DNA of 64,000 bases, taken from positions 33,885 through 97,884 of the forward strand of contig CAYMIL010000002.1 in NCBI GenBank assembly GCA_964390845.1, given 5' to 3'. The notes beneath the pieces are model-generated. The model ran no database searches and was not told the DNA's origin. It saw nothing but the letters and a program-made list of their open reading frames with translations. The position numbers and the translations under genes are program-made. This DNA comes from an uncultured Candidatus Saccharibacteria bacterium. GTDB taxonomy: Bacteria > Patescibacteriota > Minisyncoccia > Phycocordibacterales > CALRHW01. Positions 31,242 through 53,669 of the stretch are shown one piece after another. The first letter of the stretch is position 1; each line of letters opens with the position of its first letter.

Positions 31242-32089
31242 GCCCATTGTAGACCATCAGACTCAAACACAATTCTCCCCTCTGCATACGTACCAAACAC
31301 TTGGACGCCAAAAGAGCGCAATCTGTCTACAACTATCGGCGACGGGTGGCCATATGAATTCTTTTTACCAGCCGAAATGACTGCATACATGGGCGAGACA
31401 GCCTGTAGAAATTCATCACTTGTTGATGTTTTCGACCCATGATGGCCGACCTTGAGAATGTCGCTGTCGAGCATATCGGCATCAAGACCGACGAGGTGTT
31501 TTTCTGTTTTCTCCGGAGCATCACCCGTAAGCATCATCGTCGTGCTGCCATACACAAGCTTTGCGACAATCGAGCCGTCGTTTGTAGACAAAGCCGATGG
31601 ATCAGTATCTGGAAAAAGCACAAGAAGATGCACACCCTCATCAAGAACAATATCCATGCCCCTACGCGCGAGAACTCGACGAGAACCCTCTGCAACAACG
31701 AGCCTTTCTAACTGTGCATACGTCGCACTATCTGAAACAGTGCCCGGCTCTAGAACGAGCGACACGTCGTATCGCCGTAGCACATCGATAAACCCTCCAA
31801 TATGATCCTTGTCCGGATTAGTTACCATAAGCACATCAATAGTATGGTCAAAAAACGACATCTGCGAACGCAGTTGTGCCAATACCTTAGCAGAAGAACC
31901 ACCATCGATAAGAATCTGGCGTCCATGTGGCGTTTCTATAAAAATAGCGTCCCCCTGCCCCACATCAAGTACGGCGACACTGAGTACACCTCTGCCATCA
32001 AGACGCACGAGAGCGCACACTGAGACGATGTATACACACAGACATAGCGCGGTCGCAGAAAGTAGTGGAAATGTAAGCAGGTATTTCAT
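31232..32089 (-). CDS. ComEC/Rec2-associated MBL-fold metallo-hydrolase (ComEC C-terminal domain as a separate ORF)
   Basis: VLDVGQGDAIFIETPHGRQILIDGG and HHGS motifs typical of the ComEC beta-lactamase-like domain; N-terminal signal/TM. Confidence 0.7.
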   Translation of the reverse strand: MKYLLTFPLLSATALCLCVYIVSVCALVRLDGRGVLSVAVLDVGQGDAIFIETPHGRQILIDGGSSAKVLAQLRSQMSFFDHTIDVLMVTNPDKDHIGGFIDVLRRYDVSLVLEPGTVSDSATYAQLERLVVAEGSRRVLARRGMDIVLDEGVHLLVLFPDTDPSALSTNDGSIVAKLVYGSTTMMLTGDAPEKTEKHLVGLDADMLDSDILKVGHHGSKTSTSDEFLQAVSPMYAVISAGKKNSYGHPSPIVVDRLRSFGVQVFGTYAEGRIVFESDGLQWAKK

Positions 32090-32111
32090 AAGTTTGATAT
32101 AGTATGCGCAT

Positions 32112-32711
32112 ATGAAACCATACACCGAACACACATTTTCGATTCCTGAACTTGCAGGAATTTCGAAAAAAAATATTGAAGAGCATCTTAAGCTCTACGC
32201 GGGCTACGTAAAAAGCGTAAACACCATTTTTAGCAAGATTGAAGAACTACGTACCGATAGTGAAAAAAACGCGTACGTACTAGGCGAGCTTCAACGACGA
32301 CTCGGATTTGAATTTGATGGTATGCGCAATCATGAATACTATTTCAAAAGCCTCGAAGGTGGAGCTACCGCTCTCGCTGAAGGATCACTCAAGCAGGCAC
32401 TTGAAGCACAATTTGGTAGTGTTGACGCGTGGATGAACACGTTTTCAGCACTCGCCCTCACTCGAGGTGTCGGTTGGGCGATACTGTACTGGGATCATCA
32501 GACGGAGCAATTTGTGCACACATGGGTAGAAGAACAGCATCTCGGCCACCTCGTCGGCCTTCAGCCGGTGCTCGCGCTCGATATGTGGGAACACGCATAC
32601 GTCTACGACTACCCAACATCTGAAAAGAAAAAATATATCGCGGCATTTTTTGCAAATCTTAACTGGTCCGTTGTTGAACAAAACTTCGCCGACGCACAAA
32701 CTCGATCATAA
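32112..32711 (+). CDS. sod: Fe/Mn-family superoxide dismutase
   Basis: C-terminal DMWEHAYVYDY signature (DxWEHAYY) and 199 aa length. Confidence 0.8.
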   Translation: MKPYTEHTFSIPELAGISKKNIEEHLKLYAGYVKSVNTIFSKIEELRTDSEKNAYVLGELQRRLGFEFDGMRNHEYYFKSLEGGATALAEGSLKQALEAQFGSVDAWMNTFSALALTRGVGWAILYWDHQTEQFVHTWVEEQHLGHLVGLQPVLALDMWEHAYVYDYPTSEKKKYIAAFFANLNWSVVEQNFADAQTRS

Positions 32712-34167
32712 ACACAACATAAAACACAACAACAAGCCACGCGGAGATGCGTGGCACTGTTGTATATGCATACGGCACTGACGCACCAAACTCAACAACG
32801 ACAAGCGCATACCGCAACAACATATATGCGCCCAAGCCGATCATTGTAGAGCATATCGGCAAAAGAAAACCAACAACACCCGCGAGAAAACTAAGACCCA
32901 TCGCGGAAGGTATGAGTGGCGGCACAAGAACATTTGTGACCAAAGAGATAAACGACACCATACCTGTCATATATACAAGCATCGGGAACAAAAAACACTG
33001 CGTCGCAAGTGTCGTTGCAACGCATGCGCGCAGACCAAACTTCTCTGGAATAATACTAAGGCGCGATTCAAAAAAAGGAACACATGCAACAAGAGCAAAT
33101 GTTGCCATGCACGATAATTGAAATGATGGGTCGGAGATGAGGATGAGTGGGTTGTGCAAGACCATCACCGTAGCGGCAATGGCAAGCGCGCGGAGTAAAT
33201 CATATTCCCTGCCATATGCCCGAGCAACAAGAGCGATGCACGCCATAATGGACGCGCGCACGACAGTAGCGCCACTGCCCGTTACAATTGCGAAGACGAT
33301 AATACCGAACACCCCACCGAGAACGCCCGAAGGTTTCGGGAGAAATGAAAACATTTTTATAATACACTCCGCGACAATAGTAACGTTGTAACCAGAAAGT
33401 ACGACGATATGCACCAAGCCCACCTGACGAAACTTTTCTTGCAAATCCTTACCCAGCGACTGTTTTGTCCCAAGGAGAATTCCTCCCGCAAGCGCGGACT
33501 CTGGAGATGGAATGGCGTATTCTATACGGGCAATAAATGCTTGCTTTGCATACAGCAGTGCACGACGCAGAAATGATCCGTGTCCGCGAGATAATAGAGA
33601 AAATGTGGGATTGTCTACATAATACCCAACATTATCTTTTTCTAGATACGCGCGATAATCGAACACTCGCCCCGTGTCAGTTTCAAAATTTTCTGGCAAC
33701 TGCAGAAGACCCGAGAGGCGGACTTCATCGCCGTACAAAAACTCTGTATCGGTATACGGCGCCACCACAAGTATATCGTGGCGGTACCCCTCAAGTGTGG
33801 TGTTGTTGTAAAGATGTGGCGTTACCATGAGACGCACATGTGTCTCGCGCCTATCTGGCTCTTCTGAAACAACACCAACAATATCGACCACCTCCCCCAC
33901 GGCATGCACCAAAGCATCGTGTGCCCGATATGAAAGTGTGTATGCATGGCGCGCTACGCCAACACACACACTACACAAGCACACACCCATAAGAAAGACG
34001 CGCGGATGTGCTCGATACACATACGTACACACCGCACAACAACACGCGAGGAACATCGCCGCATATCCAGATACGATGTGAAACAGCACAGTGTTGAGCG
34101 CAACACCACATAAAAAACCAGCAACACTTGTATACAACACCCTTGAAGGCATACGCCCAGTATGCAC
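32659..34167 (-). CDS. comEC: ComEC/Rec2 DNA internalization channel (membrane competence domain)
   Basis: Polytopic membrane protein, LVHIVVLSGYNVTIVAECI competence-domain motif; lacks the MBL domain, which sits in a separate downstream ORF. Confidence 0.75.
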   Translation of the reverse strand: MHTGRMPSRVLYTSVAGFLCGVALNTVLFHIVSGYAAMFLACCCAVCTYVYRAHPRVFLMGVCLCSVCVGVARHAYTLSYRAHDALVHAVGEVVDIVGVVSEEPDRRETHVRLMVTPHLYNNTTLEGYRHDILVVAPYTDTEFLYGDEVRLSGLLQLPENFETDTGRVFDYRAYLEKDNVGYYVDNPTFSLLSRGHGSFLRRALLYAKQAFIARIEYAIPSPESALAGGILLGTKQSLGKDLQEKFRQVGLVHIVVLSGYNVTIVAECIIKMFSFLPKPSGVLGGVFGIIVFAIVTGSGATVVRASIMACIALVARAYGREYDLLRALAIAATVMVLHNPLILISDPSFQLSCMATFALVACVPFFESRLSIIPEKFGLRACVATTLATQCFLFPMLVYMTGMVSFISLVTNVLVPPLIPSAMGLSFLAGVVGFLLPICSTMIGLGAYMLLRYALVVVEFGASVPYAYTTVPRISAWLVVVFYVVFMIEFVRRRSFVQQRTS

Positions 34168-34224
34168 ATACGCGATACATTTTTTCTAAAGAGAACATAA
34201 AAGACTGTTATACTAAAAGTACAC

Positions 34225-34701
34225 ATGAAAAAGAATTCATCGGGGTTATCTATCGTGGAAATTATCGTGAGTGTCGCCATCCTCTCTCTATTTGCAACAA
34301 TTAGTTTGTATTCTTTTTTTGCACTAAGCCGTCGTAGTGCGCTCGACACAAGTGCAACCATCGTAAAATCTGTACTCACTGAAGCGCGTTCAAAAACACT
34401 CGCGGGAGAAAGTGGCACTCGATACGGTGTGTATTTTTCCTCCTCATCAGTCACCACCTTCTCTGGAACGTCATACACAGCAAACGCATCGGGAAATGTT
34501 GTTAGCCCCCTTCAATCAGGTGTCACCATTTCAAATGTCTCACTCGCTGGAGGTGGCGCATGCTCAAGCTCATCATGCAACATCATCTTCAACCGTCTCA
34601 CTGGCGAGACATCACTTGCAGGGACAAGCACCGTAACACTTCGCGGGCAAGATGGCGCAACAACGAGCGTTACAATTTTCGGCACAGGTATTGTAGAATA
34701 A
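34225..34701 (+). CDS. type IV pilin-like / pseudopilin (prepilin N-terminal motif G|LSIVE)
   Basis: MKKNSSG-LSIVEIIVSVAIL: class III signal peptide with Gly at -1 and Glu at +5. Confidence 0.75.
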   Translation: MKKNSSGLSIVEIIVSVAILSLFATISLYSFFALSRRSALDTSATIVKSVLTEARSKTLAGESGTRYGVYFSSSSVTTFSGTSYTANASGNVVSPLQSGVTISNVSLAGGGACSSSSCNIIFNRLTGETSLAGTSTVTLRGQDGATTSVTIFGTGIVE

Positions 34702-34706
34702 CTATC

Positions 34707-35189
34707 ATGAACGCACGCAAAGGTATGGTTCTTGCAGAAGCACTTGTTGGCGCATCCGTGCTGATTGTGTTTATCTCCGCACTCGTGCTTGCGCAACGCA
34801 TCTTTATCGCGCAGTCATCGATGTCTATCGACAAAACACAGTCTGCACTCCTTGCAGAAGAAGGTATCGAGGTTGCAAAGTTTTTGCGTGATGAAAACTG
34901 GGCAAATATCGCCTGCGCAAGCACAACCTGTGGTCCCTACGGCCTCCAGTGGGATACGACGTGGTCAACAACCACATCCGCCGAAATTATCGACGAAAAA
35001 TTTTATCGCACCCTCACTATCGACCGCGTCTGTCGTAACAACAGCACATTTGCCATAGCATCATCATGTTCTGGTGCTGTTACCAACGATCCAAACACCA
35101 AAAAGGTAACCATTTCCGTATCGTGGTCGCGCAACAACGCGACAACAACAAAAACGATGGCGACATATCTCACCAACTTCCATGAATAA
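34707..35189 (+). CDS. type IV pilin-like / pseudopilin (G|MVLAE)
   Basis: MNARKG-MVLAEALVGASVLIV; start trimmed from longer ORF. Confidence 0.7.
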   Translation: MNARKGMVLAEALVGASVLIVFISALVLAQRIFIAQSSMSIDKTQSALLAEEGIEVAKFLRDENWANIACASTTCGPYGLQWDTTWSTTTSAEIIDEKFYRTLTIDRVCRNNSTFAIASSCSGAVTNDPNTKKVTISVSWSRNNATTTKTMATYLTNFHE

Positions 35190-35694
35190 GCACAGAGGAT
35201 TTAGCTTGGCAGAAATGATTGTGTACGTCGCGCTCGTAGCGATGCTCCTCTTTATCGTTATCAACATTCTCATTGTGGGGCTCAACATGTATCGACGCTT
35301 TGATGCGGCGCGCAATGTGCAGGATGCGGCAATTGCTGTAATCGAGCGGGTCGTATCCGAATCTCGCAACGCATCAATGATCAGTGTCGAGGCATCTGGC
35401 GTCGACAGCAGTGGCCAAAACGCTCTCGTTATGTACAACGAAAACGATGCTCGGTTGGCACAATTCACCATTGGCACCGATGGTATCATTCGGCTCTACA
35501 ACAGTAGCGGAAACCTCGTTGGCCCCCTTACTCCAAAGGATGTAACCGCTGCGGGGTCGTATTTCCTCATTGCATCAAGCACTTCTGGTACGCCACTGGC
35601 GCGCGTGATCCTCATTCTTCGTTCAGGCGAAGGAGAGACAGAGCGCACAGAAAATTTTTACACATCTGTCGTGCCTCGCGGTTCATATAAATAA
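35182..35694 (+). CDS. type IV pilin-like / pseudopilin (G|FSLAE)
   Basis: MNKHRG-FSLAEMIVYVALV; 8-nt overlap with upstream pilin (translational coupling). Confidence 0.75.
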   Translation: MNKHRGFSLAEMIVYVALVAMLLFIVINILIVGLNMYRRFDAARNVQDAAIAVIERVVSESRNASMISVEASGVDSSGQNALVMYNENDARLAQFTIGTDGIIRLYNSSGNLVGPLTPKDVTAAGSYFLIASSTSGTPLARVILILRSGEGETERTENFYTSVVPRGSYK

Positions 35695-35699
35695 ACACC

Positions 35700-37718
35700 A
35701 TGCGTTCCCTTTTTAAACACATACACAACACACGCGGAGGATACGTTGTACTCACAGCGGCCCTTTGTTTTATCGCAGTATCACTCACTATTATTTTTGG
35801 TATTGTGTCGCCGGCAATCGCACAGGTAAAAAATTCTTCTCGTTCGTTTGTGTCGCGCGAAAGCTATTTTCTCGCTGAGGCAGGAGTCGAAGATGCAGTG
35901 TACCAGTTCAAAAACGGATACACCCCAACATCAGGACAGCTCAGTATCAATGGCGAAACTGTAGCTGTCACCATAGCAACAGGTAACGGCTCGACCACCA
36001 TCACCGCGACAGGTGATAAAAACAACACCGAGCGAAAGGTAGAAGCTGAGCTCGTTGGCGACACCGGTGCTATTTTCAACAATGCCGTATTCTCTGGTAA
36101 TGGTGGTTTTAGCATCACCGGCGGATCACAGATTATCGGTAGCGTATATTCCAACGGCGACATCATCGGTGGTGGTGGTTCTTCGATTTCACAAAATGCT
36201 GTCTCTGCAACGCTTGTAAGCCCATCAGTCAACCAATCAAACGGCACCGTCTTCCCTCCTGCGTACGGCATTAGCTTTGGAAGCAACGTTGCCCCACAAG
36301 ATGTCGCGCAAAGTTTCCAAGTTTCCACATCAACAGCGATAACCGCGATCCGTCTGTATATCAAAAAGAGCACAAGCGGATGGATGAACGACATCACCTT
36401 GCGCATCATGAGCAACAACTCGGGCACAGGAAACCCAGGCACAACAAGTATCGCATCCGTTAATATTCCCGCATCGCAGATTTCTACATCATACGGTTAC
36501 CTCGCAGTAACCCTTCCAACAGCGCCCACACTCACACCAGGTACAACATACTGGATCGTCCTTGATACAGGCTCAACCTACGGAGCGTCATACACCATTG
36601 GCGCGGCGAGTGCGTCATACGCAAATGGCCTCGCGAAAGTTGGAACATACAATAGTAGCTGGTCCAACACATCTCCATCTGGACTCGATGCATATTTCGA
36701 CATTGTTGTCGGTGGCGACCCGGGCGTCATTTCTGGCTTAAGTATTGGCGGTGATGCGTGGGCGTACAATGTTGCAAACTCGTCTATTTCAGGAACAGCG
36801 TATTGCCAGATTGGCTCCGGCAACAACAAGTCCTGCAACACGACGCGGACAGACCCAAGCCCTGTCGGCTTCCCCATCTCCGACACAAATGTCACAACAT
36901 GGAAAGCAGGTGTTACCTCAGCAATTTCTCCGGCAATTACTGGCGGATGGACATACACAGGCAATCTCACTATCGGATACCAGGGCACCACAACTTCAAC
37001 ACTCAAGAAAGTAAACGGAAATCTTACGCTCTCTTGCTCAAGCGCTCCCGCAACATTTGGAGATTTGTGGGTTACCGGAAACGTGACGATTGGTAGTGGT
37101 TGTATCTTTAACGCAAATCAGGTAAAAATCGATGGCTCATTCAACGCGGGTTCTGGCCAAGGCAACATCGGCGCGCTTGAGGTGGTGGGAAATATTAGCA
37201 TCACAAGCGGAAACACATTGACCGCTGGGCCGATTAAAGTCGGTGGCGATCTCACTGTCGGCTCCACAGCGCTTGTCCTCAAGGGCACCCTGTGGACCGT
37301 CGGTAAAATTACTGTACAAAGCGGAGCGGCTGTGAGACTCCACTCATCCTACGGTACTCAACCAGGTGTCATCGTTGTCGACGGACGTGTCGACCTCGGA
37401 GGCGGCGGATCATTCTCTGGTTCTGGACAAACAGGAAGCTACCCTGTGCTTGTATCCCTCAGTACGTGTCCGACAGGTACCGGCTGTAGTAGCAACAACG
37501 CTATCCAAATGAGTGGAGGCGCGGGAGCAATTCTCCTTATTGCACAAAACGGAACAGTGAGCATGACCGGTGGAACAGCGGCGAAGGCGCTTATCGGAAA
37601 ACAAGTGGTTCTTTCAAACGGTGCTCGAGTAACATACGACAACAACCTCATCAATCTTGATTTCCAAAGCGGTCCTGCAGATGGCTATGACATCGGACTC
37701 TGGAAAGAAGTTGAGTAG
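35700..37718 (+). CDS. large pilus-associated protein (672 aa): N-terminal TM/pilin-like anchor lacking Glu+5, beta-helix-like Gly/Thr-rich repeats
   Basis: Follows three pilins; repeats such as GNVTIGSGCIFNANQVKIDGSFNAGSGQGNIGALEVVGNISITSGN suggest a parallel beta-helix. Confidence 0.5.
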   Translation: MRSLFKHIHNTRGGYVVLTAALCFIAVSLTIIFGIVSPAIAQVKNSSRSFVSRESYFLAEAGVEDAVYQFKNGYTPTSGQLSINGETVAVTIATGNGSTTITATGDKNNTERKVEAELVGDTGAIFNNAVFSGNGGFSITGGSQIIGSVYSNGDIIGGGGSSISQNAVSATLVSPSVNQSNGTVFPPAYGISFGSNVAPQDVAQSFQVSTSTAITAIRLYIKKSTSGWMNDITLRIMSNNSGTGNPGTTSIASVNIPASQISTSYGYLAVTLPTAPTLTPGTTYWIVLDTGSTYGASYTIGAASASYANGLAKVGTYNSSWSNTSPSGLDAYFDIVVGGDPGVISGLSIGGDAWAYNVANSSISGTAYCQIGSGNNKSCNTTRTDPSPVGFPISDTNVTTWKAGVTSAISPAITGGWTYTGNLTIGYQGTTTSTLKKVNGNLTLSCSSAPATFGDLWVTGNVTIGSGCIFNANQVKIDGSFNAGSGQGNIGALEVVGNISITSGNTLTAGPIKVGGDLTVGSTALVLKGTLWTVGKITVQSGAAVRLHSSYGTQPGVIVVDGRVDLGGGGSFSGSGQTGSYPVLVSLSTCPTGTGCSSNNAIQMSGGAGAILLIAQNGTVSMTGGTAAKALIGKQVVLSNGARVTYDNNLINLDFQSGPADGYDIGLWKEVE

Positions 37719-42567: not shown

Positions 42568-43788
42568 CTAGATAGCGTCAACAAGAGAATACATCGGTCC
42601 AAGCATAGAGATTGCAAAGAATCCGACCGCGATACCAATAAACACCATAAGAAACGGCTCAATGATTGTCGACATATCTTTTGTCTTTTGGTCGACCTCA
42701 TCCTCGTAAAACTGAGCAACGTTTGTAAACATTTCAGACAATTTTCCAGTTTCTTCGCCAATACTCGTCATTTCACCCACAAACACGGGGTACAGTTTCT
42801 CGTGCGCAAGGAAGATGCCCGACATCGGCTCTCCTTTCTCGACACTACTTTCTGCCTCTGCAAGCACTGTTTTGTAATAAGAGTTTTGAATCACATCTTT
42901 TGTAATACGAATGGCTACCAGCACATCAACACCTGAGGACAGGAGGGAGGAGAGGGTGCGCGCTGTTCGAGCGGCGTTTACGTTTTTTACAATTGGTGAA
43001 ACAAGTGGAATATGAAGGACGATTGTATCAAGTGTGCGCTTACCTGAAGCAGTACGCGCAAAGAGATATACACCACACGCAAGCGCAATGAGCGAGCCGA
43101 GGGAAATTAAAATATTGTTTTTCAAAAAATCAGAGAGGAAGATTACGATGCGCGTCGACAGCGGAAGTGTAAGCTTAAGCTCGCGAAACGTTGCGGTGAG
43201 TGTCGGCACAAGATACACAAGCATAAGAACACCGATAACAAGCATAATGGAAAGTACGATACCAGGATAAATGAGCGCGCCGCGCACCTTTTTCGTCAGC
43301 AAATATGCCTTCTCAAGCTGGTCAGCAACTGTTTTAAGGGCGATAGTAAGCGTACCACTCTGCTCTCCAGACTTTACCATCGAGACGAAAAGTGTCGAAA
43401 ATGCCGACGGATGCTTTACCATTGCCTCACTAAGCTCACTTCCCTTGCTAATATCTGCCGAGAGGTTTGCGATGACACTCTTAAGTTTCTTATTCTTTGC
43501 TTGACGTTCCATCACAGAAAGAGCACGAGCCATCGGCAAACCCGCGGTAATCATCGTGCCAAGATTGCGCGCAAACAAAATACGGTCAATTGTTTTGACA
43601 CTTCCACCCTGAAGGCTCGCGAAAGCACTCGCAAGAAACCCTGAACGCTGTTTTTTTTCTTCTGCAAAGGTAACCGTTCCACCCTCCCCCTTTATCTGAC
43701 TATACAGCGCAGATTTATTTGCGGCCTCTTGCTCACCTTCATATCGCTCACCCGACGCATTAATAGCTTTAAATGTAAAAATTGGCAT
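42568..43788 (-). CDS. pilC: type IV pilus assembly platform protein PilC / GspF family
   Basis: Two GspF repeats, three TM helices; directly downstream of pilB. Confidence 0.85.
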   Translation of the reverse strand: MPIFTFKAINASGERYEGEQEAANKSALYSQIKGEGGTVTFAEEKKQRSGFLASAFASLQGGSVKTIDRILFARNLGTMITAGLPMARALSVMERQAKNKKLKSVIANLSADISKGSELSEAMVKHPSAFSTLFVSMVKSGEQSGTLTIALKTVADQLEKAYLLTKKVRGALIYPGIVLSIMLVIGVLMLVYLVPTLTATFRELKLTLPLSTRIVIFLSDFLKNNILISLGSLIALACGVYLFARTASGKRTLDTIVLHIPLVSPIVKNVNAARTARTLSSLLSSGVDVLVAIRITKDVIQNSYYKTVLAEAESSVEKGEPMSGIFLAHEKLYPVFVGEMTSIGEETGKLSEMFTNVAQFYEDEVDQKTKDMSTIIEPFLMVFIGIAVGFFAISMLGPMYSLVDAI

Positions 43789-43791
43789 AGA

Positions 43792-45576
43792 TTATTCTGA
43801 AATTACACGGAGAATTTCTTCGATTGTTGTGTGGCCTTGTACCGCCTTAAAGATGCCATCTTCAATCATTGTGAGCATTCCTTCTGTTTTTGCCTGCTTC
43901 TCAATGTCTTTATCTGTTTTCCCCTGCATCACAAGCTCTTTAATAGCAGGAGAAATTTTTAATATTTCATAAATGCCGACGCGACCACTAAACGCTTCTT
44001 CCTCAGAAGCACCCGCCTTTGGCCGATAAAACGGCACTTTGTCCCATGACACCTTACCCTCAACCACCTGCTCTTCTTTGAGGAACTTGAGTACACGATC
44101 GAGATCGACCGTTTTTTTGAGAGTTTCAATTTCAGCATCTGATAAAAAGTATTTTTCTTTTTTATCTGTGAGCTTTCGAACAAGACGTTGGGCAATGACG
44201 ATGTTGACTGTCGACACAATAAGAAACGGCTCAACCTTCATGTCGATAAGACGTGGGATAGCGCCCGCAGCGGAGTTGGTGTGCAATGTGGAAAGCACGA
44301 GGTGGCCCGTGAGCGACGCGTTGATCGCAAGCGACGCTGTTTCACCGTCTCGAATTTCTCCCACCATAATAATATCCGGATCCTGACGCACCAAGGTGCG
44401 CAACCCCGCAGAAAACGTGAGGCCAATTTCTGGCTTCACCTGTGTTTGGTTAATCCGATTCATCTGATACTCTACAGGATCTTCGATAGTGGAAATATTT
44501 ACATCCGGCGTGTTGAGAATATCGAGCAAGGTGTAGAGGGTTGTTGTTTTTCCAGAACCAGTCGGACCAGTGGTGAGAATCATACCCGTCGTGAGTTTCA
44601 TTGTGTGGTGAATACGCTCAAGCGCTTCTCCATGGAAGCCAAGCGCTTCCAGCGTAAAGCCTGAGGCTGTCTCACGCAACAAACGCATCACTGTCTTCTC
44701 TCCGTAATAGACAGGGAGTGTCGACACACGAAATGACACCTTTTCATTGTTAACCTCAATTTTGAAACGACCATCTTGAGGAAGGCGCTTCTCATCAAGC
44801 TTCAAATTTGCGAGCACTTTAATACGTGCCGTGATACTCGGCGCAATATTTCTCGGCAATGTCATCGCGTCGTGAAGTAGGCCGTCGATTCGGTAACGGA
44901 CAATCACCTGCTGTTCAAGTGGTTCAATATGAATATCGGAAGCATTTTGCAAAATAGCATGCTTGAGCAGTGTGTCGACAATACGCACAACAGGCACGTC
45001 CTCTGCGAGTTTCTTGAGGTCACTTTCAGACACATCCTCTCCCCCCTCATGTTCTTCTACTGTCTTGAGTGAGACCGCATCTTTTTGAATCAAATCGCCA
45101 AATTCTGCCTTGAGACTTTTCTGATACTGCAACAACGCCCCCTTCATCGACTCATTATCTGTAAGGCGGGGCAAAATTTTCAAACCTACTTTCTTTTTTA
45201 CGAAATCAATCGCCGTAAGATCGGCAATATCGAGCATCGCCACCTCAAGCGCGCCAGCAATTTTTTTAAAGGCAACAATGTTGTGGTTGCGAGCAATCGG
45301 CTCTGGCACAAGCGAGAGTACTTCAAAGTCGAGCTTCTGCCCTTTCAAGTCGACAAACGGTATGCCGAGCACGTGCGCGTGAATCCGGCGCAAATCGTCC
45401 TCACTAATCTTTCCTCGACTCACGAGAATTTCTCCAACGCTTACGTCGGTTGCCTTCGATTCTTTTTCTGCATCAGCAAAATCGGCTTTTGAGACAAGGC
45501 CTGCGTCAAGAATAAAATCCTTAAATTGTTTTTCTTCAACGTGCATCTGAACGTAGTGTTGACTTAAGTATAACAA
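43792..45576 (-). CDS. pilB: type IV pilus assembly ATPase PilB / GspE (with N-terminal GSPII_E_N domains)
   Basis: Walker A GPTGSGKTTT, Asp box, Walker B, His box; ORF starts TTG at 45576, an ATG (MHVEEK) lies at 45546. Confidence 0.9.
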   Translation of the reverse strand: MLYLSQHYVQMHVEEKQFKDFILDAGLVSKADFADAEKESKATDVSVGEILVSRGKISEDDLRRIHAHVLGIPFVDLKGQKLDFEVLSLVPEPIARNHNIVAFKKIAGALEVAMLDIADLTAIDFVKKKVGLKILPRLTDNESMKGALLQYQKSLKAEFGDLIQKDAVSLKTVEEHEGGEDVSESDLKKLAEDVPVVRIVDTLLKHAILQNASDIHIEPLEQQVIVRYRIDGLLHDAMTLPRNIAPSITARIKVLANLKLDEKRLPQDGRFKIEVNNEKVSFRVSTLPVYYGEKTVMRLLRETASGFTLEALGFHGEALERIHHTMKLTTGMILTTGPTGSGKTTTLYTLLDILNTPDVNISTIEDPVEYQMNRINQTQVKPEIGLTFSAGLRTLVRQDPDIIMVGEIRDGETASLAINASLTGHLVLSTLHTNSAAGAIPRLIDMKVEPFLIVSTVNIVIAQRLVRKLTDKKEKYFLSDAEIETLKKTVDLDRVLKFLKEEQVVEGKVSWDKVPFYRPKAGASEEEAFSGRVGIYEILKISPAIKELVMQGKTDKDIEKQAKTEGMLTMIEDGIFKAVQGHTTIEEILRVISE

Positions 45577-45630
45577 AAAACACTCACCCTGAAGTGGATA
45601 AGTGTCTTTTGTGTTTAGTGAAAAATGAGA

Positions 45631-46635
45631 TTACTCGATTCGAAGCGCCCAACCAAATCGTGTCTCTCCACAATCATAGTCATTACCAGAGCTCAAACAA
45701 CTTGTTGGTGGCACACCTCCGATACTACCGATTGTTGTGCCGCCAGCGTACACGCCCATGTATACATATGGAGTAGCTGTATACATTTCACGGTCTGCTG
45801 TACTGTCTCCTATCTGATCCATTCGTGTAAGGTTCACAAGCCACTTTGCGCTTGCGCCGCCAGGGAGCGTTGGGCCAGCACCGCTGTTGAGCACATCACC
45901 TGCCCATGATGTAGACCATTTTGATCCATCCACACCGATATTATGTCCCGGCTCGTTTCCATACGCCTCCAAGTATCCGAAGGCAAAAGAGATTGTAGCC
46001 CCAACGCCCGTTGTTTGGTTGGTGCCCGTTCCATATGGAAGCATGACTGATCTCCAATCACCCTGACCGCCCGTACCTGTTGCAGTAAAGACCTTTCCGT
46101 TTGAAGGCGTGCCACCTGTTACCTGAAGTGTTCCCGCAACTTTCACGTTGGTTGAAGACTGGGACATGATGGAGTTTGAAAGTGTCGTGCCGTTTGGAGA
46201 AAAGAACGGAATGTAGTTTGTTGTACCAGAGCCACCAATACCACCTGTACCCCCACCTGATGGCCATGTGTCTTTACATACTCCTCGAATACACAATCCT
46301 CCAGCAGTTGCAGAACCTCCGTTGATGTATCCTTCAGTATTAATTTTATAGTTTGGATCATGTGCTACAGTTCCCGCGATAATTGAGCCTGCGGATGCGC
46401 GAAGCGCAACTTCAGGAGCACCTGTACCTATCACGAGTCCACCAATTTTTGTCTGAGAAGCACTGCTCACATTAATCGGCGCATCACATCCGGGGCTACC
46501 TGATGTACATGCCGGTGGCAATGATGACGGCGCAGACCAGTCTGCGCGAAGTGCGCCGATGCCAACGGTGAGCATAAGCGCGAGTACAATCACTTTCACG
46601 CTCTGCAGAATTTCTTGTTTATTTATGATTTTCAT
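45631..46635 (-). CDS. secreted Gly/Thr-rich protein (334 aa), signal peptide
   Basis: N-terminal hydrophobic signal; low-complexity GGTGG tracts; upstream of pilB on same strand. Confidence 0.45.
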   Translation of the reverse strand: MKIINKQEILQSVKVIVLALMLTVGIGALRADWSAPSSLPPACTSGSPGCDAPINVSSASQTKIGGLVIGTGAPEVALRASAGSIIAGTVAHDPNYKINTEGYINGGSATAGGLCIRGVCKDTWPSGGGTGGIGGSGTTNYIPFFSPNGTTLSNSIMSQSSTNVKVAGTLQVTGGTPSNGKVFTATGTGGQGDWRSVMLPYGTGTNQTTGVGATISFAFGYLEAYGNEPGHNIGVDGSKWSTSWAGDVLNSGAGPTLPGGASAKWLVNLTRMDQIGDSTADREMYTATPYVYMGVYAGGTTIGSIGGVPPTSCLSSGNDYDCGETRFGWALRIE

Positions 46636-46675
46636 ACGTTGTTAATTAATCTATTACTATAAGTATACACCACTA

Positions 46676-46993
46676 CTACCTCATCGAGCCCACAGGGCTT
46701 GTCTCTCGAAGAAACTGTGCCTCCTGCTCCGGCGTCAGCGTCGATGAGACGCTTGCGCTCGACTCTGCGCGAAACTGTTTTTCCTGATCAGTAGAGAGTT
46801 GTGAGCCACTTGATGCGCTCGACTCTGCGCGAAAACGGTCCTCCTGACTCATCTCCGGCTCGCGAGAAGAATTGAAGAATGTAAAAATCGCAGCGAGAAC
46901 GATGAGGCACACGATAAACACAACAATCCAACGAGCCTTGTGCTGTGACGGAGGCATCGGAAACGTCTGTTGTGAGGGTGATTGAAATTCCAT
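46676..46993 (-). CDS. small single-pass membrane protein with tandem 20-aa repeat (FRAESSAS...)
   Basis: TM WIVVFIVCLIVLAAIFTFF; 60-bp DNA tandem repeat at 46745-46865. Confidence 0.4.
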   Translation of the reverse strand: MEFQSPSQQTFPMPPSQHKARWIVVFIVCLIVLAAIFTFFNSSREPEMSQEDRFRAESSASSGSQLSTDQEKQFRAESSASVSSTLTPEQEAQFLRETSPVGSMR

Positions 46994-47004
46994 ATGTGTT
47001 GAGA

Positions 47005-49269
47005 TTAAAATTCGTTAATTGATGGACGAACGATAACTGTCGCCTCCGCTTGAGGACAGACCGCAACATTTCCATTTGCGTCGGTTACCGTGAGCTTTCC
47101 GTGCTTAATACCTGTTGTCTGATAAATCTTTGTAACGGAAACACCTGTTCCAGAAAGTCCGTTATCTCCGCTCCACTGGTATGTAAGCGGAGGCACGCCG
47201 CCAGCAACAGTTCCCACCCACGTAAGTGGCGCATTTACCAAATACGGTGGATCATCCTGAAGCTCACACGTTACATCGATAGGAGCGTCTAGTGTCGGAG
47301 CAATCACTTCGACAGTTACAGTAACTGTGCGTGACGTTGCACCACTCACTCCCGTAAAGACCACGTTGTAAATACCCGGCTCTGCATTTGCCCATGCCGC
47401 GATTGTTACTGTTGTTGAACATGTAGGGTTACATGTTTGAGTAGCCCCCGGAATTGAAACCGTAAGAGGAGTATCTTCGGATATGGATGAAGTAATTGTT
47501 ACAGCCTCACTCACACCCGCATCAAGAATTCGAGAGATCTTTGTTGTCTTTTGAGTACCACGGTCGATAGTAAGATACACGGGCATTGCTGAGAGGTGAA
47601 AATCAAACTTCCCTGAAGGCTTTCCATAGGTAACCTTCGGATATCCATCACTCGAAGAATGCGAACCTCCAAAATACAACCACCCAACAACATCACCGCC
47701 CCACGCATATCCAACAATTCGTCCCGTTGCCGCATGGTATGTAAGGCCACGAGTACCGTCAGTAAATCCAGAAGGATATGTTGGTCCTGAGAGACTTATC
47801 CATCCATCCCACCCTGATGTGAGGTCTCCAAGCACCGCCTTTGCCCACCCTTTTATTGTCATACTGTCAGACTGAAGTGTCGCGTTTTGTGTATATGGCT
47901 CAGCAGAAGAAGGAAAACCTGACAAATTTCCAAACTTAATCCAACCGATTGACGGCGACCATGCGTGTCCAGTGATTGTTCCTGGACCACCCATCGTGCC
48001 GCCGTTATTGATAGTCACAGCAAACGGTTTGTTTGTTGATGTTGTTGTCTGACAGTTGGTTGTCGCCGCAGTACCATCGTCTGCAACACCGTCTACAGTA
48101 GCCACGCCGTTCACAATCGGATACGCATCTTCACAGCTGTTCATTTTTACCCACCCAATATTTGAAGACCATGCCCATCCGAAGACATTTCCTGTCTCCG
48201 CTGTACCCGTAAGTACACACAAACCATTTTCTGCAGTATATCCAGATGGACATGTTCGCTCGCACTTTGTTGCCTTGGTACACGAAGCCACAAGACCCCA
48301 CTGTGTTGGCTGTGTTAGCCCAGTGTCGTCACTTGAACACATCGTTGAGAGCGGGTCGTATGATCCATAACACACGTTTGAAGCAATCGGTATACATGCA
48401 CCATTTGAAAGTGTGTAGCCAGCGGAACATGTCGCTTCACACTTTGCTGATGTACACGAAGACACCGCCGCCCATGATGCAGGACTCGTCAATCCAGAAT
48501 CGTCGCCGGAACACATCGTGGAATTTGACGGCTGACTGCCGGAACATGAATACGTTTCAACATCTCCTCCACCGCCATCAGACTGAGTGATTGGAGAAAT
48601 TTCTCTCCACGCGCTCCATGCCTGCATACAATCTTTCCAATTTCTTACTCCAACCCTCAAACTCTGTCCGTAATATGCGTTACCGCCAGTAGTAAGCCCC
48701 GCGACAAGATTCCACGCAGAATGAATGTCACTTCGCGTGTCAGACCACATCGCGTCAGACACTTCGCTAAAACTCTGATTTGCCAAAATAACAGCGACCT
48801 GCTGTGCATCGCCCACACCAGCATCTGGATCACCGGGAATAGTAATGGAGAGGTTGTTTACACCACTTGCAGAATACACATCAGAGAAGCTTGCCGAAAG
48901 GTATGACGGCGCGACAGGTGCTTCTTGAGTACAGACACCGCCCCCGTCGTCGGTACCATCAGAAAGACCGGAGTCGTCGCTCACACCGATATCGCCACCA
49001 CCAAGACTTGGGGGTGTTTGACACGTTCCCGCACCAGAGGTTGTACACGAGCCTGTTGTTCCTGCGCAGTATCCAGACTGACACTGAGCATTTGAACTAC
49101 AGATACCACCATTTCTTGTGTTGTTGTTACATGAAAGCACCTGAGTTCCCGAAACGCCCTGCACGGGTGTTGCTTGAGAAAATAGGAACAGTCCCGACAA
49201 AAGCACCGCGGCAAGCACTGCGAGCGTGACGAGCTGTTTATTGCGCACAATTCCTCGAATATGTTTCAT
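47005..49269 (-). CDS. large secreted protein (about 754 aa): repeated Cys-rich modules, GW motifs, C-terminal PKD-like domain
   Basis: Signal/TM MKHIRGIVRNKQLVTLAVLAAVLLSGLF; two paralogous about 50-aa modules; GWAWSSNIGWVKM / GHAWSPSIGWIKF / GYAWGGDVVGWLYF; PKD-like YQWSGDNGLSG...LTVTDANG. Confidence 0.55.
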   Translation of the reverse strand: MKHIRGIVRNKQLVTLAVLAAVLLSGLFLFSQATPVQGVSGTQVLSCNNNTRNGGICSSNAQCQSGYCAGTTGSCTTSGAGTCQTPPSLGGGDIGVSDDSGLSDGTDDGGGVCTQEAPVAPSYLSASFSDVYSASGVNNLSITIPGDPDAGVGDAQQVAVILANQSFSEVSDAMWSDTRSDIHSAWNLVAGLTTGGNAYYGQSLRVGVRNWKDCMQAWSAWREISPITQSDGGGGDVETYSCSGSQPSNSTMCSGDDSGLTSPASWAAVSSCTSAKCEATCSAGYTLSNGACIPIASNVCYGSYDPLSTMCSSDDTGLTQPTQWGLVASCTKATKCERTCPSGYTAENGLCVLTGTAETGNVFGWAWSSNIGWVKMNSCEDAYPIVNGVATVDGVADDGTAATTNCQTTTSTNKPFAVTINNGGTMGGPGTITGHAWSPSIGWIKFGNLSGFPSSAEPYTQNATLQSDSMTIKGWAKAVLGDLTSGWDGWISLSGPTYPSGFTDGTRGLTYHAATGRIVGYAWGGDVVGWLYFGGSHSSSDGYPKVTYGKPSGKFDFHLSAMPVYLTIDRGTQKTTKISRILDAGVSEAVTITSSISEDTPLTVSIPGATQTCNPTCSTTVTIAAWANAEPGIYNVVFTGVSGATSRTVTVTVEVIAPTLDAPIDVTCELQDDPPYLVNAPLTWVGTVAGGVPPLTYQWSGDNGLSGTGVSVTKIYQTTGIKHGKLTVTDANGNVAVCPQAEATVIVRPSINEF

Positions 49270-49462
49270 GACAAAAATGGTTAAGTACTCGTTTGAAATT
49301 ATATCACACGACACCTGCTCAGAAGCGCGCTATGCACAGTTTTTGACAGATAAGCCCGACTTGACTTTTCTCTTTCAATTTACTATTATATGTGCATTGA
49401 AGTTCGCCCCCGGCGAGCTCATTTTTTTAGATAACGCCGGTTTCCCGGCAACATACACACAT

Positions 49463-51259: not shown

Positions 51260-51880
51260 ATGAAACATGTAATCATTCCTTTGTGCATTATGGCCGTGGT
51301 GTATACAGTAGCACCGCTTCGCGCGGGAGCAATGGAGCCACAGCGCGGGTTTTTTGATGCACGCGTAAAAGTTGCTTCACCAGAAGATACTGAAAAAATG
51401 CGAGCTCTCAAGCAAGCTCCGACAATGAAACCCGAAATGCGGAAAGTGATGCTCGACGGCGCTACAGGCACACCTCGCGCCCTCCTCAACGCTCACCCAC
51501 GCATGATCGAGCGACTTGAGAAAAAGATGGAGACTGTGTCAGACACACAACGCCCAAAAGTTGAGGCACGATTGCAGAAAGCCGAAGATATTCTCACGGC
51601 GCGCATTGAAGCGGCACTTGAGCGATTTTCCGGCATCGTTGAGCGGCTCGAGTCTCGCATTGATACACTCAAAACAAACGGCGTAGATACAAGCGAAGCA
51701 GAAAAGCATCTTGCAGAAGCAAAGAGTGCGATTGATACAGCATCCGCTGGTCTTTCGGGAGATGCTCGCAGTGCAATACAGGAGATGAAATCAAATCTCT
51801 TCACTATCCGACAACACCTCTCAGAGACTATCGCGAGCCTCAAGGCTGGAGTAAACACCTCAGCAGAACCAACTCTTTAA
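51260..51880 (+). CDS. secreted alpha-helical protein (paralog of C-terminal domain of 52214-53368)
   Basis: Signal peptide MKHVIIPLCIMAVVYTVAPLRAGA; RLESRIDTLKTNGVDTSEAEKHLAEAKSAI aligns with RIESRMEKMRSDGISIAAAEVFVERAKTSA of the dockerin protein. Confidence 0.5.
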   Translation: MKHVIIPLCIMAVVYTVAPLRAGAMEPQRGFFDARVKVASPEDTEKMRALKQAPTMKPEMRKVMLDGATGTPRALLNAHPRMIERLEKKMETVSDTQRPKVEARLQKAEDILTARIEAALERFSGIVERLESRIDTLKTNGVDTSEAEKHLAEAKSAIDTASAGLSGDARSAIQEMKSNLFTIRQHLSETIASLKAGVNTSAEPTL

Positions 51881-51900
51881 TCAACTAACATACACACATT

Positions 51901-52203
51901 ATGGAAACACCACACATGCAGTATCAGCCTCAGCAATCTCAGCAGGCACCAACACCAAAGCGCTCAACAACAGGTCCTGTTATTGGCATTGTCGTAGTAC
52001 TTGCAATGATTGTCGTTGGCGTTTTGTACTTCTGGGGCGAGCGTGTTGATACACTCAACAAAAATCGTGAGTTGCTTCAGAAAGGAGCAGACACGCAGGT
52101 TGAGCAACTTCAGACACAAAGCGCGTCAGATGACCTCACTTCTATCGAAGCAGATCTCGACGCAACCGATATCAATGCAATAGACACTGGCATTAGCAAC
52201 TAA
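51901..52203 (+). CDS. small single-pass membrane protein (paralog of 53373-53669)
   Basis: TM GPVIGIVVVLAMIVVGVLYFW; C-terminal SDDLTSIEADLDATD motif shared with paralog SDDIPSIEADLNATS. Confidence 0.5.
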   Translation: METPHMQYQPQQSQQAPTPKRSTTGPVIGIVVVLAMIVVGVLYFWGERVDTLNKNRELLQKGADTQVEQLQTQSASDDLTSIEADLDATDINAIDTGISN

Positions 52204-52213
52204 CGCATACGTC

Positions 52214-53368
52214 ATGATTACCCCGAAGAGATCTTTGCGGACCGTTGGCCTCATCGTACTGGTTGCCGTAGTGTCCTTTGCGCACGTTCCAACGGCACTT
52301 GCGAAGGCGGCATCGACAGAAACAACGAGTGTCCAAACAAACACATCAAACTCCTCAGTCAACACATCGGCAACACAAGCGGTCAGCACAACAAACTCTG
52401 CACCAAGTGCGACACCACAGAAATCAAGTGATCTCAATCACGATGGGTACGTCACAAATGCAGACGTAAATCTCGTACTCAGCAGTTTTGGTACATGCCA
52501 ACTAAGCGCGTCATGCCCGGCAGACATCAACAATGATGGTTCTGTAAACAATGCAGATCTCTCTATTGTTGTAAAAAACGCAAACTCTTCGACTGCGGGT
52601 GGCAATGGTGCACTCACTGGCGGCGGAATCAACAACACCTCAAACACTTCTGTCAGCACGACAGACGGCTCAACAAACTCTTCATCAAACGGCACAACAC
52701 ACACAACATCAAACTCAACAACGAACACCAATACAAACACATCCGGAAACACTTCACCCGTTTCATCAACACAACGCACTGGCGGTTCAACAGGAATAAA
52801 CCCGAACGCGTTTCTTGGAAACCAATCTCAGGTTCCTGCGGTAACACGCCAACTCATTGAGTTTGTCCTCCCTATCCCAAACTACATGCAAAATCCGAGC
52901 ACGCCACGTGTTGTAAATGAGGAAGAAGAGATGAAAGCACGAAGTGCGCGCTCAAGCACTGCTCAACAAAATTTCCAGACGATTCAAGACCGGCTTGAAG
53001 CAGGAACACAGCGTATCGACACACTCATTACACGCATCGAATCTCGCATGGAGAAAATGCGATCGGATGGTATCAGTATTGCCGCGGCTGAAGTGTTTGT
53101 GGAACGAGCAAAAACAAGCGCTGGTGTGGCGCGAGCAAATACCGCAGGACTTGAAGAAGCATTCAACAATGCCCTTGCACAAACAACAGACAACGATGCA
53201 CGCATCGCATTTGAAAGCGTGCGCGCACTCATCGCAAGCGCAAAATCTCAGCTTGAAGGAGCTCGACGAAATCTTCTTGAAGCAGTTCGCATCATGAAAG
53301 CGGCGCAAGAACGTTTTCAACCACAAGTATCGGCTGAGGACAGCGCACTCGAGAGTGAGTTAAACTAA
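52214..53368 (+). CDS. secreted dockerin-domain protein with S/T/N-rich linker and C-terminal alpha-helical domain
   Basis: Signal peptide; duplicated Ca-binding loops DLNHDGYVTNAD and DINNDGSVNNAD spaced 19 aa apart (type I dockerin pattern DxNxDGxVNxxD). Confidence 0.6.
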   Translation: MITPKRSLRTVGLIVLVAVVSFAHVPTALAKAASTETTSVQTNTSNSSVNTSATQAVSTTNSAPSATPQKSSDLNHDGYVTNADVNLVLSSFGTCQLSASCPADINNDGSVNNADLSIVVKNANSSTAGGNGALTGGGINNTSNTSVSTTDGSTNSSSNGTTHTTSNSTTNTNTNTSGNTSPVSSTQRTGGSTGINPNAFLGNQSQVPAVTRQLIEFVLPIPNYMQNPSTPRVVNEEEEMKARSARSSTAQQNFQTIQDRLEAGTQRIDTLITRIESRMEKMRSDGISIAAAEVFVERAKTSAGVARANTAGLEEAFNNALAQTTDNDARIAFESVRALIASAKSQLEGARRNLLEAVRIMKAAQERFQPQVSAEDSALESELN

Positions 53369-53372
53369 ACGC

Positions 53373-53669
53373 ATGCAACCTGAACACCCATACATTCCTG
53401 AAGTTACACCTGTAGAGCTCAAATCTCGCACGCCATTCATCATCATCGTGGCAAGCGGAGTGCTCGCACTTTTGGCGGCTGTGGGCTTTTATTTCTACAT
53501 CACCCGCCCAGTATCCACGACGACACCGGATGTTGTTGTGCCACAAGGCGATAATCAGTTGCATCAATTAGAAAACCAGAGCCTCTCAGATGACATACCG
53601 TCCATTGAGGCAGATCTCAACGCAACCAGCTTCGATGGTATCGATGCAGGTGCCGAAGAACTGAGATAA
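53373..53669 (+). CDS. small single-pass membrane protein (paralog of 51901-52203)
   Basis: TM FIIIVASGVLALLAAVGFYFY; shared C-terminal SIEADL motif. Confidence 0.5.
   Translation: MQPEHPYIPEVTPVELKSRTPFIIIVASGVLALLAAVGFYFYITRPVSTTTPDVVVPQGDNQLHQLENQSLSDDIPSIEADLNATSFDGIDAGAEELR

Follow-up and report, generated by a model that had tools for sequence, protein, structure and literature searches.

Patescibacteria account for a large share of bacterial diversity, and their cultivated members live attached to other microbes. The Paceibacteria are a large class of which there are to our knowledge almost no cultures, and we know of no attachment molecules for them. Here we describe a three-gene cassette found in a 64,000-nucleotide stretch of DNA (the window; contig CAYMIL010000002.1) from an uncultured Candidatus Saccharibacteria bacterium, whose closest relatives, metagenome-assembled genomes, carry the labels Paceibacterota, Parcubacteria or Patescibacteria. 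The cassette lies immediately upstream of the type IV pilus genes pilB and pilC, and encodes a large modular protein with a predicted Trp-rich barrel domain (the GW domain), a small membrane protein and a fibre-like protein.

Several described systems bring together some of these features. TcpF of Vibrio cholerae and CofJ of enterotoxigenic Escherichia coli are Sec-exported proteins encoded with type IVb pilus genes and dependent on the pilus for their secretion, and a peptide at the mature N-terminus of each binds the minor-pilin trimer at the pilus tip. The WxL/Csc clusters of Firmicutes, which occur in multiple copies, combine a small anchored protein with secreted proteins that carry Trp-containing docking domains and immunoglobulin (Ig)-like domains. 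Within the Candidate Phyla Radiation (CPR), the Pam pili are Sec-dependent filaments of Ig-fold subunits that had earlier been mistaken for type IV pili (bioRxiv 10.64898/2026.03.03.709456). Their pilins have a nine-stranded N-terminal sandwich, a linker donor strand and a truncated Ig-like C-terminal domain, and their operons include PapD-like membrane-anchored chaperones, with a tail-fibre-like protein encoded nearby (bioRxiv 10.64898/2026.03.03.709456). Two published accounts give adhesion through pili and surface proteins a central place in the way cultivated Patescibacteria live as epibionts (PMC11623550; PMC10633639), and the pilus tip adhesins of Saccharibacteria are minor pilins with large domains (PMC11623550). 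The cassette proteins are unlike these tip adhesins because they have no prepilin leaders.

The reading that we favour, tentatively and as a little short of probable, is that the three genes form a self-contained operon for a Patescibacteria-specific (Paceibacteria/Parcubacteria) surface module, with a role in display or adhesion beside the type IV pilus and not within it.

The three-gene cassette and its predicted transcription signals

The genes for the large protein (754 amino acids, aa), the membrane protein (105 aa) and the fibre-like protein (334 aa) follow one another in this order on the minus strand and are followed by pilB and pilC (Table 1); the open reading frame (ORF) calls match the order given in an earlier account made from the letters of this DNA (the sequence-only reading). 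Gaps of 11 and 40 nucleotides (nt), unstructured on folding, separate the genes within the cassette, and 84 nt lie between the 334-aa gene and pilB. The large gene had been extended to 49314, which is indeed the GTG of the longest ORF, but its true start is most likely ATG 49269, because an identical database protein (P0001) has 754 aa, gene callers choose the same codon, and a predicted -10 box (TGATATAAT) falls within the GTG extension. For pilB the start is most likely ATG 45546 (584 aa) rather than TTG 45576. All three cassette products carry predicted export or membrane signals, as had been claimed; these calls are based on hydrophobic N-terminal segments (hydropathy), Cys content and composition, Gly, Ala, Ser and Thr together making up 44-46% in the exported proteins against 25% in PilB.

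The trio of GW-barrel, small membrane and fibre-like genes recurs in many Paceibacteria loci, with the small gene either before or after the GW gene. Comparisons of loci were built on 80 GW loci, nearly all labelled Patescibacteria, that were retained from at least 495 confirmed stretches in species-representative genomes. In all of 25 cases the fibre-like gene shared the strand of the GW gene, and in 18 of them the two lay less than 500 bp apart; the usual gap between them, 310-390 bp, is the small gene. This adjacency holds also at loci with no pilB in the flank, and the trio stands 5' of pilB at L006, L011, L013, L036, L039, L042, L044, L064, L071, L081 and L082. The contention that these genes are not random neighbours is thus borne out. 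At L005, where NusA is 90% identical to that of the window, there are two long-form GW genes (25-3194 and 9600-11314), one in a complete cassette after ClpP and the other directly after NusA; this two-copy arrangement argues that the cassette duplicates or moves as a unit.

No terminator on the minus strand between the genes came out of a simple promoter and terminator scan. Explicit folding, however, predicts one after the 334-aa gene, and co-transcription of the cassette with pilB was dropped as an interpretation. The terminator hairpin has a minimum free energy of -24.2 kcal/mol (z = -4.98), and none of 200 shuffles was as stable. An A-tract, hairpin and U-tract of differing sequence occupy the same place upstream of pilB in about 13 of 19 related loci, and this retention of the structure despite changes in its sequence speaks for real terminators. 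For the extended -10 motif TGNTATAMT the window has nine sites (positions 3408, 26978, 34206, 45567, 49298, 51220, 55522, 59983 and 63216), as against 2.4 ± 1.6 in shuffles, of which none in 100 reached nine. Most of these sites lie just 5' of genes, including the GW gene, pilB and the first pilin gene, and the pattern suggests that the motif is the main promoter type of this genome. The same motif was found less than 100 nt 5' of pilB in 16 of 19 relatives, with a background of 0.007 per 100 nt. The terminator and the promoter that follows it therefore predict separate transcripts for the cassette and pilB, and the predicted organisation is promoter, GW gene, membrane protein gene, fibre gene and terminator, then a second promoter, pilB and pilC, with read-through possible.

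Two further signals were observed. At L016, L021, L026, L037 and L042 no more than 6-8 nt separate the end of the predicted -10 box from the pilB ATG, a spacing that implies leaderless or nearly leaderless pilB transcripts at these loci. In the gap between the 105-aa and 334-aa genes (46636-46675, minus strand) there is GTGTATACT, a -10-like hexamer with its TG one base out of register, which could serve the 334-aa gene as a weak internal promoter.

Conserved ends and variable bodies of the cassette proteins

The domains of the 754-aa protein, as they appear in a full-length AlphaFold model, are given in Table 1. The protein contains 26 Cys residues. Its two Cys modules, which the sequence-only reading had described as duplicated, are true paralogues: 31 of 54 positions are identical (57%), and their alignment score of 171 is far above that of 500 shuffles (31.5 ± 6.0, maximum 54). 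Their ending C-x3-C-x2-G-Y-x6-C is EGF-like by pattern alone, and an EGF domain was not detected with Pfam. The C-terminal PKD domain proposed in that same reading proved to have a confidently predicted Ig-like fold, residues 662-748 forming a beta-sandwich with a predicted local distance difference test (pLDDT) score of 87-97 per 10-residue block, but is borderline in sequence, with PKD_4 (Pfam) at 26.3 bits against a cut-off of 27 for residues 689-739 and a precomputed match flagged as weak. Foldseek comparison of the full-length model with the PDB gave generic tandem Ig/FN3 matches only. The architecture recurs, in full or in large part, in seven homologues (P0002-P0008; 34-43% identical), and some 70 more matches cover only about 23% of the query, namely the GW region.

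The GW domain is built from hairpins with the motif G-x-A-W-S-x-N-I-G-W-I-x-F. Three had been reported in the 754-aa protein; the motifs exist, but there are four (at residues 364, 434, 474 and 520), the third in degenerate form (GWAKA...GWDGWISL). Across 48 homologues their Gly and Trp positions vary little or not at all, and the consensus of alignment A1 is GxAWSSNIGWISFN ... GYAWSSNIGWIKFGGLSGFP ... GWARA ... GWDGWISLSG ... GYAWGGDVVGWxxF. An AlphaFold model of the domain (A1; pLDDT 75, predicted TM-score 0.75) forms eight strands from the four hairpins. Searches of Pfam, NCBIfam (noise only), PHROGs and PDB sequences with this domain gave nothing, and no relatives were found in IMG/VR viral contigs. 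Typical members of the family have 400-480 aa, with an Ig-like middle. Two GW loci (L063 and L067) were observed on short contigs binned as Dehalococcoidales and Patiriisocius; L067 adjoins a translation-factor (EF-G-like) gene, as do the Patescibacteria loci L069, L070 and L083. The shortness of the contigs and this likeness of neighbours suggest that both are mis-binned Patescibacteria contigs and not an occurrence beyond the phylum.

A second conserved element of the GW family is a C-terminal tail with the consensus [VI]-x-[VI]-x-[PS]-x-[IFV]-x-E-[IF]-COOH. The Glu at position -2 was present in 67 of the 75 ORFs positive for the GW hidden Markov model (89%), as against 54 of 865 other ORFs at the same loci (6%), and the corresponding residue of the window's protein, E753, is kept in at least 90% of the 48-sequence alignment. 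In a set of 148 distinct tails, 82% have Glu at position -2, 49% have Pro and 23% Ser at position -6, 71% have a hydrophobic residue at position -4, and 55% end in Ile or Phe. Nearly all family members bear the tail, whatever domain precedes it, as do a few neighbouring signal-peptide proteins in which no GW domain was detectable. The 754-aa chain terminates 6-8 residues past its last beta-strand, with no transmembrane (TM) segment after the tail motif. Identification of the tail as an LPXTG/sortase, PEP-CTERM, GlyGly-CTERM, PGF-CTERM or type IX secretion system (T9SS) C-terminal domain signal was rejected, as the sorting models of NCBIfam and Pfam were unmatched and there is no TM segment. 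When the neighbouring ORFs were clustered all against all, no sortase- or peptidase-like protein came up repeatedly as a partner of the tail.

Since the N-terminal barrel and the C-terminal tail are the two conserved elements and occur together, the family could be thought to build a Sec-dependent filament other than a type IV pilus, in which the C-terminal strand or tail of one subunit would insert into the barrel of the next, by analogy with Pam pili. The 400-480-aa members with Ig-like middles are of Pam-pilin-like size, and a gene for a tail-fibre-like protein likewise accompanies the Pam operons (bioRxiv 10.64898/2026.03.03.709456). We hold such a filament to be very improbable, however: the barrel and the last Ig/PKD domain are predicted to be complete, with no missing strand, the cassette contains no PapD-like chaperone, and its small protein has only about 60 residues outside the membrane. 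Moreover, Pam pilins have been reported in Saccharimonadia and Microgenomatia, not in Paceibacteria, and no PDB chain matched in sequence.

The 334-aa protein agrees with its earlier description as a Gly/Thr-rich secreted protein, having 27.5% Gly+Thr and, by hydropathy, a hydrophobic N-terminal signal-like segment. In an exhaustive phmmer search it was matched by 736 representative clusters, nearly always over its first 70-200 residues only, and the lengths in this family range from 107 to 1678 aa; few members are close relatives of the window's protein. The constant part is the motif W-[TS]-x-P-x3-PP-x(2-8)-N/C..-P-I-N-V-x4-Q-x-K-x-G-x-L (the WTxP motif), which stands right behind the signal peptide and with which the mature protein therefore begins. 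In a set of 89 members, Peptidase_S74 was found in six and C1q, tail-collar, T4 or T7 tail-fibre, Peptidase_G2, Lcl_C and Shufflon_N domains in single ones, and many carry GxVGIGTxxPxxKLxV repeats. The constant N-terminus, the S74, C1q and tail-fibre domains and the Gly-rich repeats together argue that the family is fibre-like, with exchangeable heads. The Shufflon_N match (E = 1e-10) is to one member of alignment A4; in the R64 thin pili, Shufflon_N is the constant part of the tip adhesin PilV. From an index of 5.8 billion proteins, only 33 short proteins were retrieved with a profile built on the WTxP N-terminus (A3). A phage origin of the cassette was rejected because viral contigs contained neither relatives of the GW domain nor a confirmed WTxP motif, the query for the latter being just 38 aa; PHROGs gave no match for any of the three proteins.

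In the 105-aa protein a tandem repeat had been seen, and this repeat is real but has three copies, not two. Its pattern, L[TS]xxExxxI[LI]xx[LM][ST]A, is kept in 12 orthologues from related loci, and the family consists of bitopic proteins of about 90-120 aa, each with three repeats.

Table 1. Coordinates of the cassette, its predicted signals and the pilus genes within the window.
Feature	Position	Strand	Basis or remark
Predicted extended -10 promoter of the three-gene operon, TGATATAAT	49298..49306	-	Motif, 28 nt upstream of ATG 49269
754-aa exported modular protein, predicted	47005..49269	-	ORF, homologues, AlphaFold full-length model (mean pLDDT 76)
Signal-like helix, residues 1-33	49171-49269	-	Model of 754-aa protein
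Cys knot, residues 46-88	49006-49134	-	Model of 754-aa protein
Beta-sandwich, residues 113-232	48574-48933	-	Model of 754-aa protein
EGF-like Cys module 1, residues 241-294	48388-48549	-	Well modelled
Cys module 2, residues 299-353	48211-48375	-	Poorly modelled
GW barrel, residues 357-545: four Trp-rich hairpins, predicted 8-stranded up-and-down beta-barrel	47635..48201	-	
Ig-like domain, residues 555-657	47299-47607	-	Model of 754-aa protein
PKD-like domain, residues 662-748	47026-47286	-	Model and near-threshold Pfam score
C-terminal tail VRPSINEF, residues 747-754	47008-47031	-	Unstructured in model, pLDDT ~61
105-aa single-pass membrane protein	46676..46993	-	Hydropathy, alignment with 12 orthologues
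TM helix, residues 22-40	46874-46930	-	Hydropathy
Three ~20-aa repeats outside the membrane	46685-46855	-	Orthologue alignment
334-aa exported Gly/Thr-rich fibre-like protein, WTxP family	45631..46635	-	Signal-like N-terminus (hydropathy), alignment A3
Constant mature N-terminal motif of 334-aa protein, DWSAPSSLPPACTSGSPGCDAPINVSSASQTKIGGL	46426-46542	-	Alignment A3
Lineage-specific C-terminal head of 334-aa protein	45634-46068	-	
Predicted intrinsic terminator after the three-gene operon (A-tract, 10-11 bp stem, U6)	45573..45612	-	RNA folding
Predicted extended -10 promoter of pilB-pilC, TGTTATACT, overlapping the end of the terminator U-tract	45567..45575	-	
pilB, type IV pilus/type II secretion assembly ATPase, separate predicted transcription unit	43792..45546	-	T2SSE 416 bits, MshEN 46 bits
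pilC, platform protein	42568..43788	-	T2SSF 183 bits, two copies
Pilin operon: three prepilin-like genes and 672-aa protein, with TGTTATACT box at 34206-34214	34206..37718	+	N_methyl, prepilin motif, ORFs

The pilus genes and other neighbours

The window's PilB has the domains of a PilB/GspE ATPase (T2SSE, E = 1e-124; MshEN, E = 5e-12). The top NCBIfam models for the two genes are PilB/GspE and PilC/GspF, both below their equivalog cut-offs (for PilB, TIGR02538 gave 525 bits against 675). In the pilin operon, N_methyl scored above its cut-off in the two genes at 34225 and 35182, the prepilin-like processing motifs are G/LSIVE, G/MVLAE and G/FSLAE, and the 672-aa protein (35700-37718) has a pilin-like N-terminal helix. 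This operon is divergent from ComEC (32659-34167, minus strand), the metallo-beta-lactamase part of which lies at 31232-32134 (minus strand). At L016, L021, L036, L042, L064 and L081 the order is pilB, pilC, three pilin genes, a gene for a protein of about 580 aa, TIM and PGK, so that the pilin block, next to pilC in these relatives, has moved about 5 kb away and been inverted in the lineage of the window. A class III (prepilin) leader is absent from all three cassette proteins, and a six-frame motif scan matched only at 34243.

The 672-aa protein ends in GLWKEVE, and its homologues at L016, L021, L036, L042, L064, L071, L081 and L006 (about 580 aa in relatives) end in W-[KREGA]-E-x(1-2). This ending resembles the GW tail, and also the WKEI and WKEV variants of the tail in the GW proteins P0051, P0059 and P0066.

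Downstream of the GW gene and on the same strand, pilB was found at 16 of the 51 loci with at least 8 kb of downstream sequence, where about 5% would be expected by chance (binomial p ~2e-9 with the loci treated as independent, shared ancestry being uncorrected), and at 19 of the 80 loci overall; PilB identity among the linked loci is 53-85%. The other 35 of the 51 loci are not near pilB, and among these pilins are nearby only at L052 and, loosely, at L040. The sequence-only reading had taken co-orientation with the pilus motor genes as a sign that the three products are pilus-associated adhesins or pilus-delivered surface proteins, and had named homologues away from pilus genes, or a transcript independent of pilB, as findings that would speak against this. 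Co-conservation of the trio upholds part of the claim, as does a frequency beside pilB well above chance. Against it stand the 35 unlinked loci, the predicted terminator and promoter, which as sequence signals point in part to an independent transcript, the absence of prepilin leaders, and the equal conservation of other neighbours such as NusA, trigger factor and ClpP.

Under a possible pilus association, the GW or the fibre-like protein would bind to the tip of the type IV pilus or leave the cell with its help, in the manner of the non-pilin tip adhesins PilY1/PilC or of TcpF and CofJ. The linkage to pilB persists where PilB identity falls to 53%, and several relatives have the order GW gene, (fibre gene), pilB, pilC, pilin genes and the gene for the 580-aa protein. 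The constant WTxP motif at the mature N-terminus has the position of the TcpF/CofJ signal, the 672-aa protein and its homologues share a GW-tail-like ending, and one member of the fibre family matches Shufflon_N. We nevertheless consider this explanation unlikely. A conserved predicted terminator and a separate promoter divide the cassette from pilB, most loci lack both pilB and pilins in their vicinity, housekeeping neighbours are conserved to the same extent, the class III leader is absent, and neither a PilY1-type propeller nor a Neisseria_PilC domain was found (Pfam).

Genes recorded beside GW genes were NusA (28 loci), trigger factor (24), ClpP (17), PilB (17), PilC (14) and RNase Y (13), and RsmE, pyrophosphatase and TIM/PGK also recur there. 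As these housekeeping neighbours are as conserved as pilB, the adjacency of pilB may reflect a conserved syntenic block. Such synteny is part of a further explanation, according to which the cassette encodes non-adhesive envelope proteins, with the GW domain as a Trp-rich module that binds the wall or S-layer, or as a barrel for small ligands. The recurrence of NusA, trigger factor, ClpP, RNase Y and TIM/PGK to an extent like that of PilB favours it, and the structural neighbours of the GW barrel include eight-stranded ligand-binding barrels (avidins, hemophilin and YceI). Aromatic-rich repeats also recall the non-covalent wall-binding modules of Gram-positive bacteria. It leaves unexplained, however, the tight pairing with a fibre family of interchangeable heads and the adhesin-typical Ig/PKD and Cys-rich modules, and variable bodies between conserved ends suit a diversifying surface recognition better; we judge it distinctly unlikely.

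No pilM, pilT or similar gene was found in the scanned part of the window (713-11245), and no pilM, pilN or pilO in the scanned window parts or in the pilB-pilC-pilin operons of relatives. The cassette might therefore be thought to supply accessory parts of the pilus machine, the small bitopic protein replacing PilN/PilO and the exported proteins acting as envelope-spanning or alignment components. The small protein does have a PilN/PilO-like topology (a short N-terminus inside, one TM helix and an ectodomain), but it lacks a PilN/PilO ectodomain and has no Pfam family above threshold. The cassette is multi-copy and mostly far from pilB, its exported proteins vary strongly in length and domains, unlike machine parts, and pilMNO may sit outside the 64 kb examined. 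Of the explanations discussed here this one seems to us so improbable as to be nearly negligible.

Two other groups of neighbouring genes were noted. A family of multi-TM proteins of about 540-560 aa occurs near GW loci (13 loci, 22 genes; for example L035 10791-12410 and L026 15890-17566), sometimes directly 5' of pilB, and may be a sensor kinase. In the window there is a tandem duplicated gene pair at 51260-53669 (plus strand), and a similar pair is present at L005. Its small TM proteins, encoded at 51901-52203 and 53373-53669, show 39% identity and have the common ending SIEADL-AT-ID-G, and its coiled-coil proteins (51260-51880 and 52214-53368) have a 53-aa stretch in common, the second also bearing a dockerin-like Ca-binding repeat.

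Proposed surface display and its relation to described systems

If the three genes do form a surface module, its products would first be exported by the Sec pathway, after which the barrel, the C-terminal tail and the WTxP peptide could act as docking pieces, with the small membrane protein probably serving as the anchor. The docking pieces would hold the Cys modules, the Ig/PKD domains and the fibre head on the cell exterior, where the variable parts might bind the surfaces of host cells or substrates. Such a module could work alongside the neighbouring type IV pilus, in a manner of 'pull, then stick'. Several points weigh against this interpretation. In the model of the monomer the GW tail is disordered, the 334-aa protein of the window has no match in Pfam or PHROGs and thus no recognisable fibre domain (S74, Collar and Phage_T4_gp36 being absent), and its head (about residues 190-334) is common to P0084 and L005 only. 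The anchoring role of the small protein is guessed from its topology alone, we infer the adhesion role from domain types and lifestyle, and the contacts among barrel, tail, WTxP peptide and membrane protein are putative.

A more specific proposal, which we regard as rather doubtful, is that the GW barrel, the tail and the WTxP peptide make up an undescribed docking code of Paceibacteria for surface display or assembly, by which interchangeable adhesin bodies are placed on one conserved acceptor. The part of acceptor could fall to the small membrane protein, to another subunit's barrel (giving head-to-tail polymers) or to the pilus tip, the last because the 672-aa pilin-operon protein shares the tail.

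The cassette is widespread (at least 495 GW stretches and 736 clusters of the fibre partner) and unannotated in the libraries searched. Its conserved ends and variable bodies, rich in Ig, Cys and fibre elements, are the build expected of host-recognition gear. It also gives reason for caution, since adjacency to pilB in compact, syntenic genomes is weak evidence of pilus function, and CPR filaments assumed to be type IV pili have proved otherwise in the case of the Pam pili. The cassette offers concrete targets for multimer modelling, surface proteomics and cryo-electron tomography.

Among tip adhesins, those of the PilY1/PilC type resemble the GW protein in being large, in having a Sec-type signal and external binding domains, and in lying beside pilus genes. 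PilY1, however, is encoded within a minor-pilin operon and has a C-terminal beta-propeller, whereas the GW protein shows no propeller in its model and no Neisseria_PilC domain with Pfam; its gene lies upstream of pilB, behind a terminator, and not in the pilin operon at 34-38 kb, and most copies are away from pilus genes. Identification as a PilY1/Neisseria PilC tip adhesin was therefore set aside, as domain, propeller and operon position are all lacking. The WTxP motif holds the same mature N-terminal position as the recognition element of TcpF and CofJ, but the sequences are unrelated, the pilus system is of the PilB/PilC type in a monoderm-like CPR bacterium, and the WTxP family has hundreds of members with fibre-like bodies.

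The small 8-stranded up-and-down beta-barrels (NspA/OmpA-type, HpuA/fHbp/hemophilin and avidins) are the nearest barrel kinds for the GW domain. With the GW modules of the Listeria proteins InlB and Ami, which are SH3-like and of about 80 aa, the likeness is one of name, through Gly-Trp dipeptides and an occurrence in surface proteins; the units here are hairpins of about 14 residues, four of which build one predicted 8-stranded barrel. A Listeria-type module (SH3_8/GW) was rejected, there being no Pfam match at E up to 1 and a different fold. The WTxP family shares with phage tail fibres and Peptidase_S74 fibre proteins a constant N-terminus, Gly-rich repeats of the GxVGIGT type and interchangeable heads, but its motif follows a signal peptide and, like the GW domain, was not found in viral contigs. 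As in the WxL/Csc clusters, a small anchored protein is paired with secreted proteins bearing Trp-containing docking candidates and Ig domains, and a WxLIP structure is among the generic Ig matches; unlike in those clusters, WxL, DUF916 and LPXTG were undetected, and the docking candidates are an N-terminal barrel and a short C-terminal tail.

The nearest published precedent is that of the Pam pili, which like the GW family are CPR-specific and Sec-dependent, with an Ig-like fold and conserved terminal strands. The GW family differs in its N-terminal barrel, in its complete Ig domains, in having no chaperone-like gene and in belonging to another CPR class. Its architecture does not agree with that described for Pam pilins. 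In the searchable literature we came upon no account of the GW domain, of the tail or of the cassette, and all three appear to be undescribed also in Pfam, NCBIfam, PHROGs and the PDB. The parts themselves are of known general kinds, namely modular Ig/PKD surface proteins, fibre proteins and a neighbouring type IV pilus, and the role of the docking code, if it is real, would be comparable to that of sortase and LPXTG, of WxL/Csc, or of the T9SS C-terminal domain.

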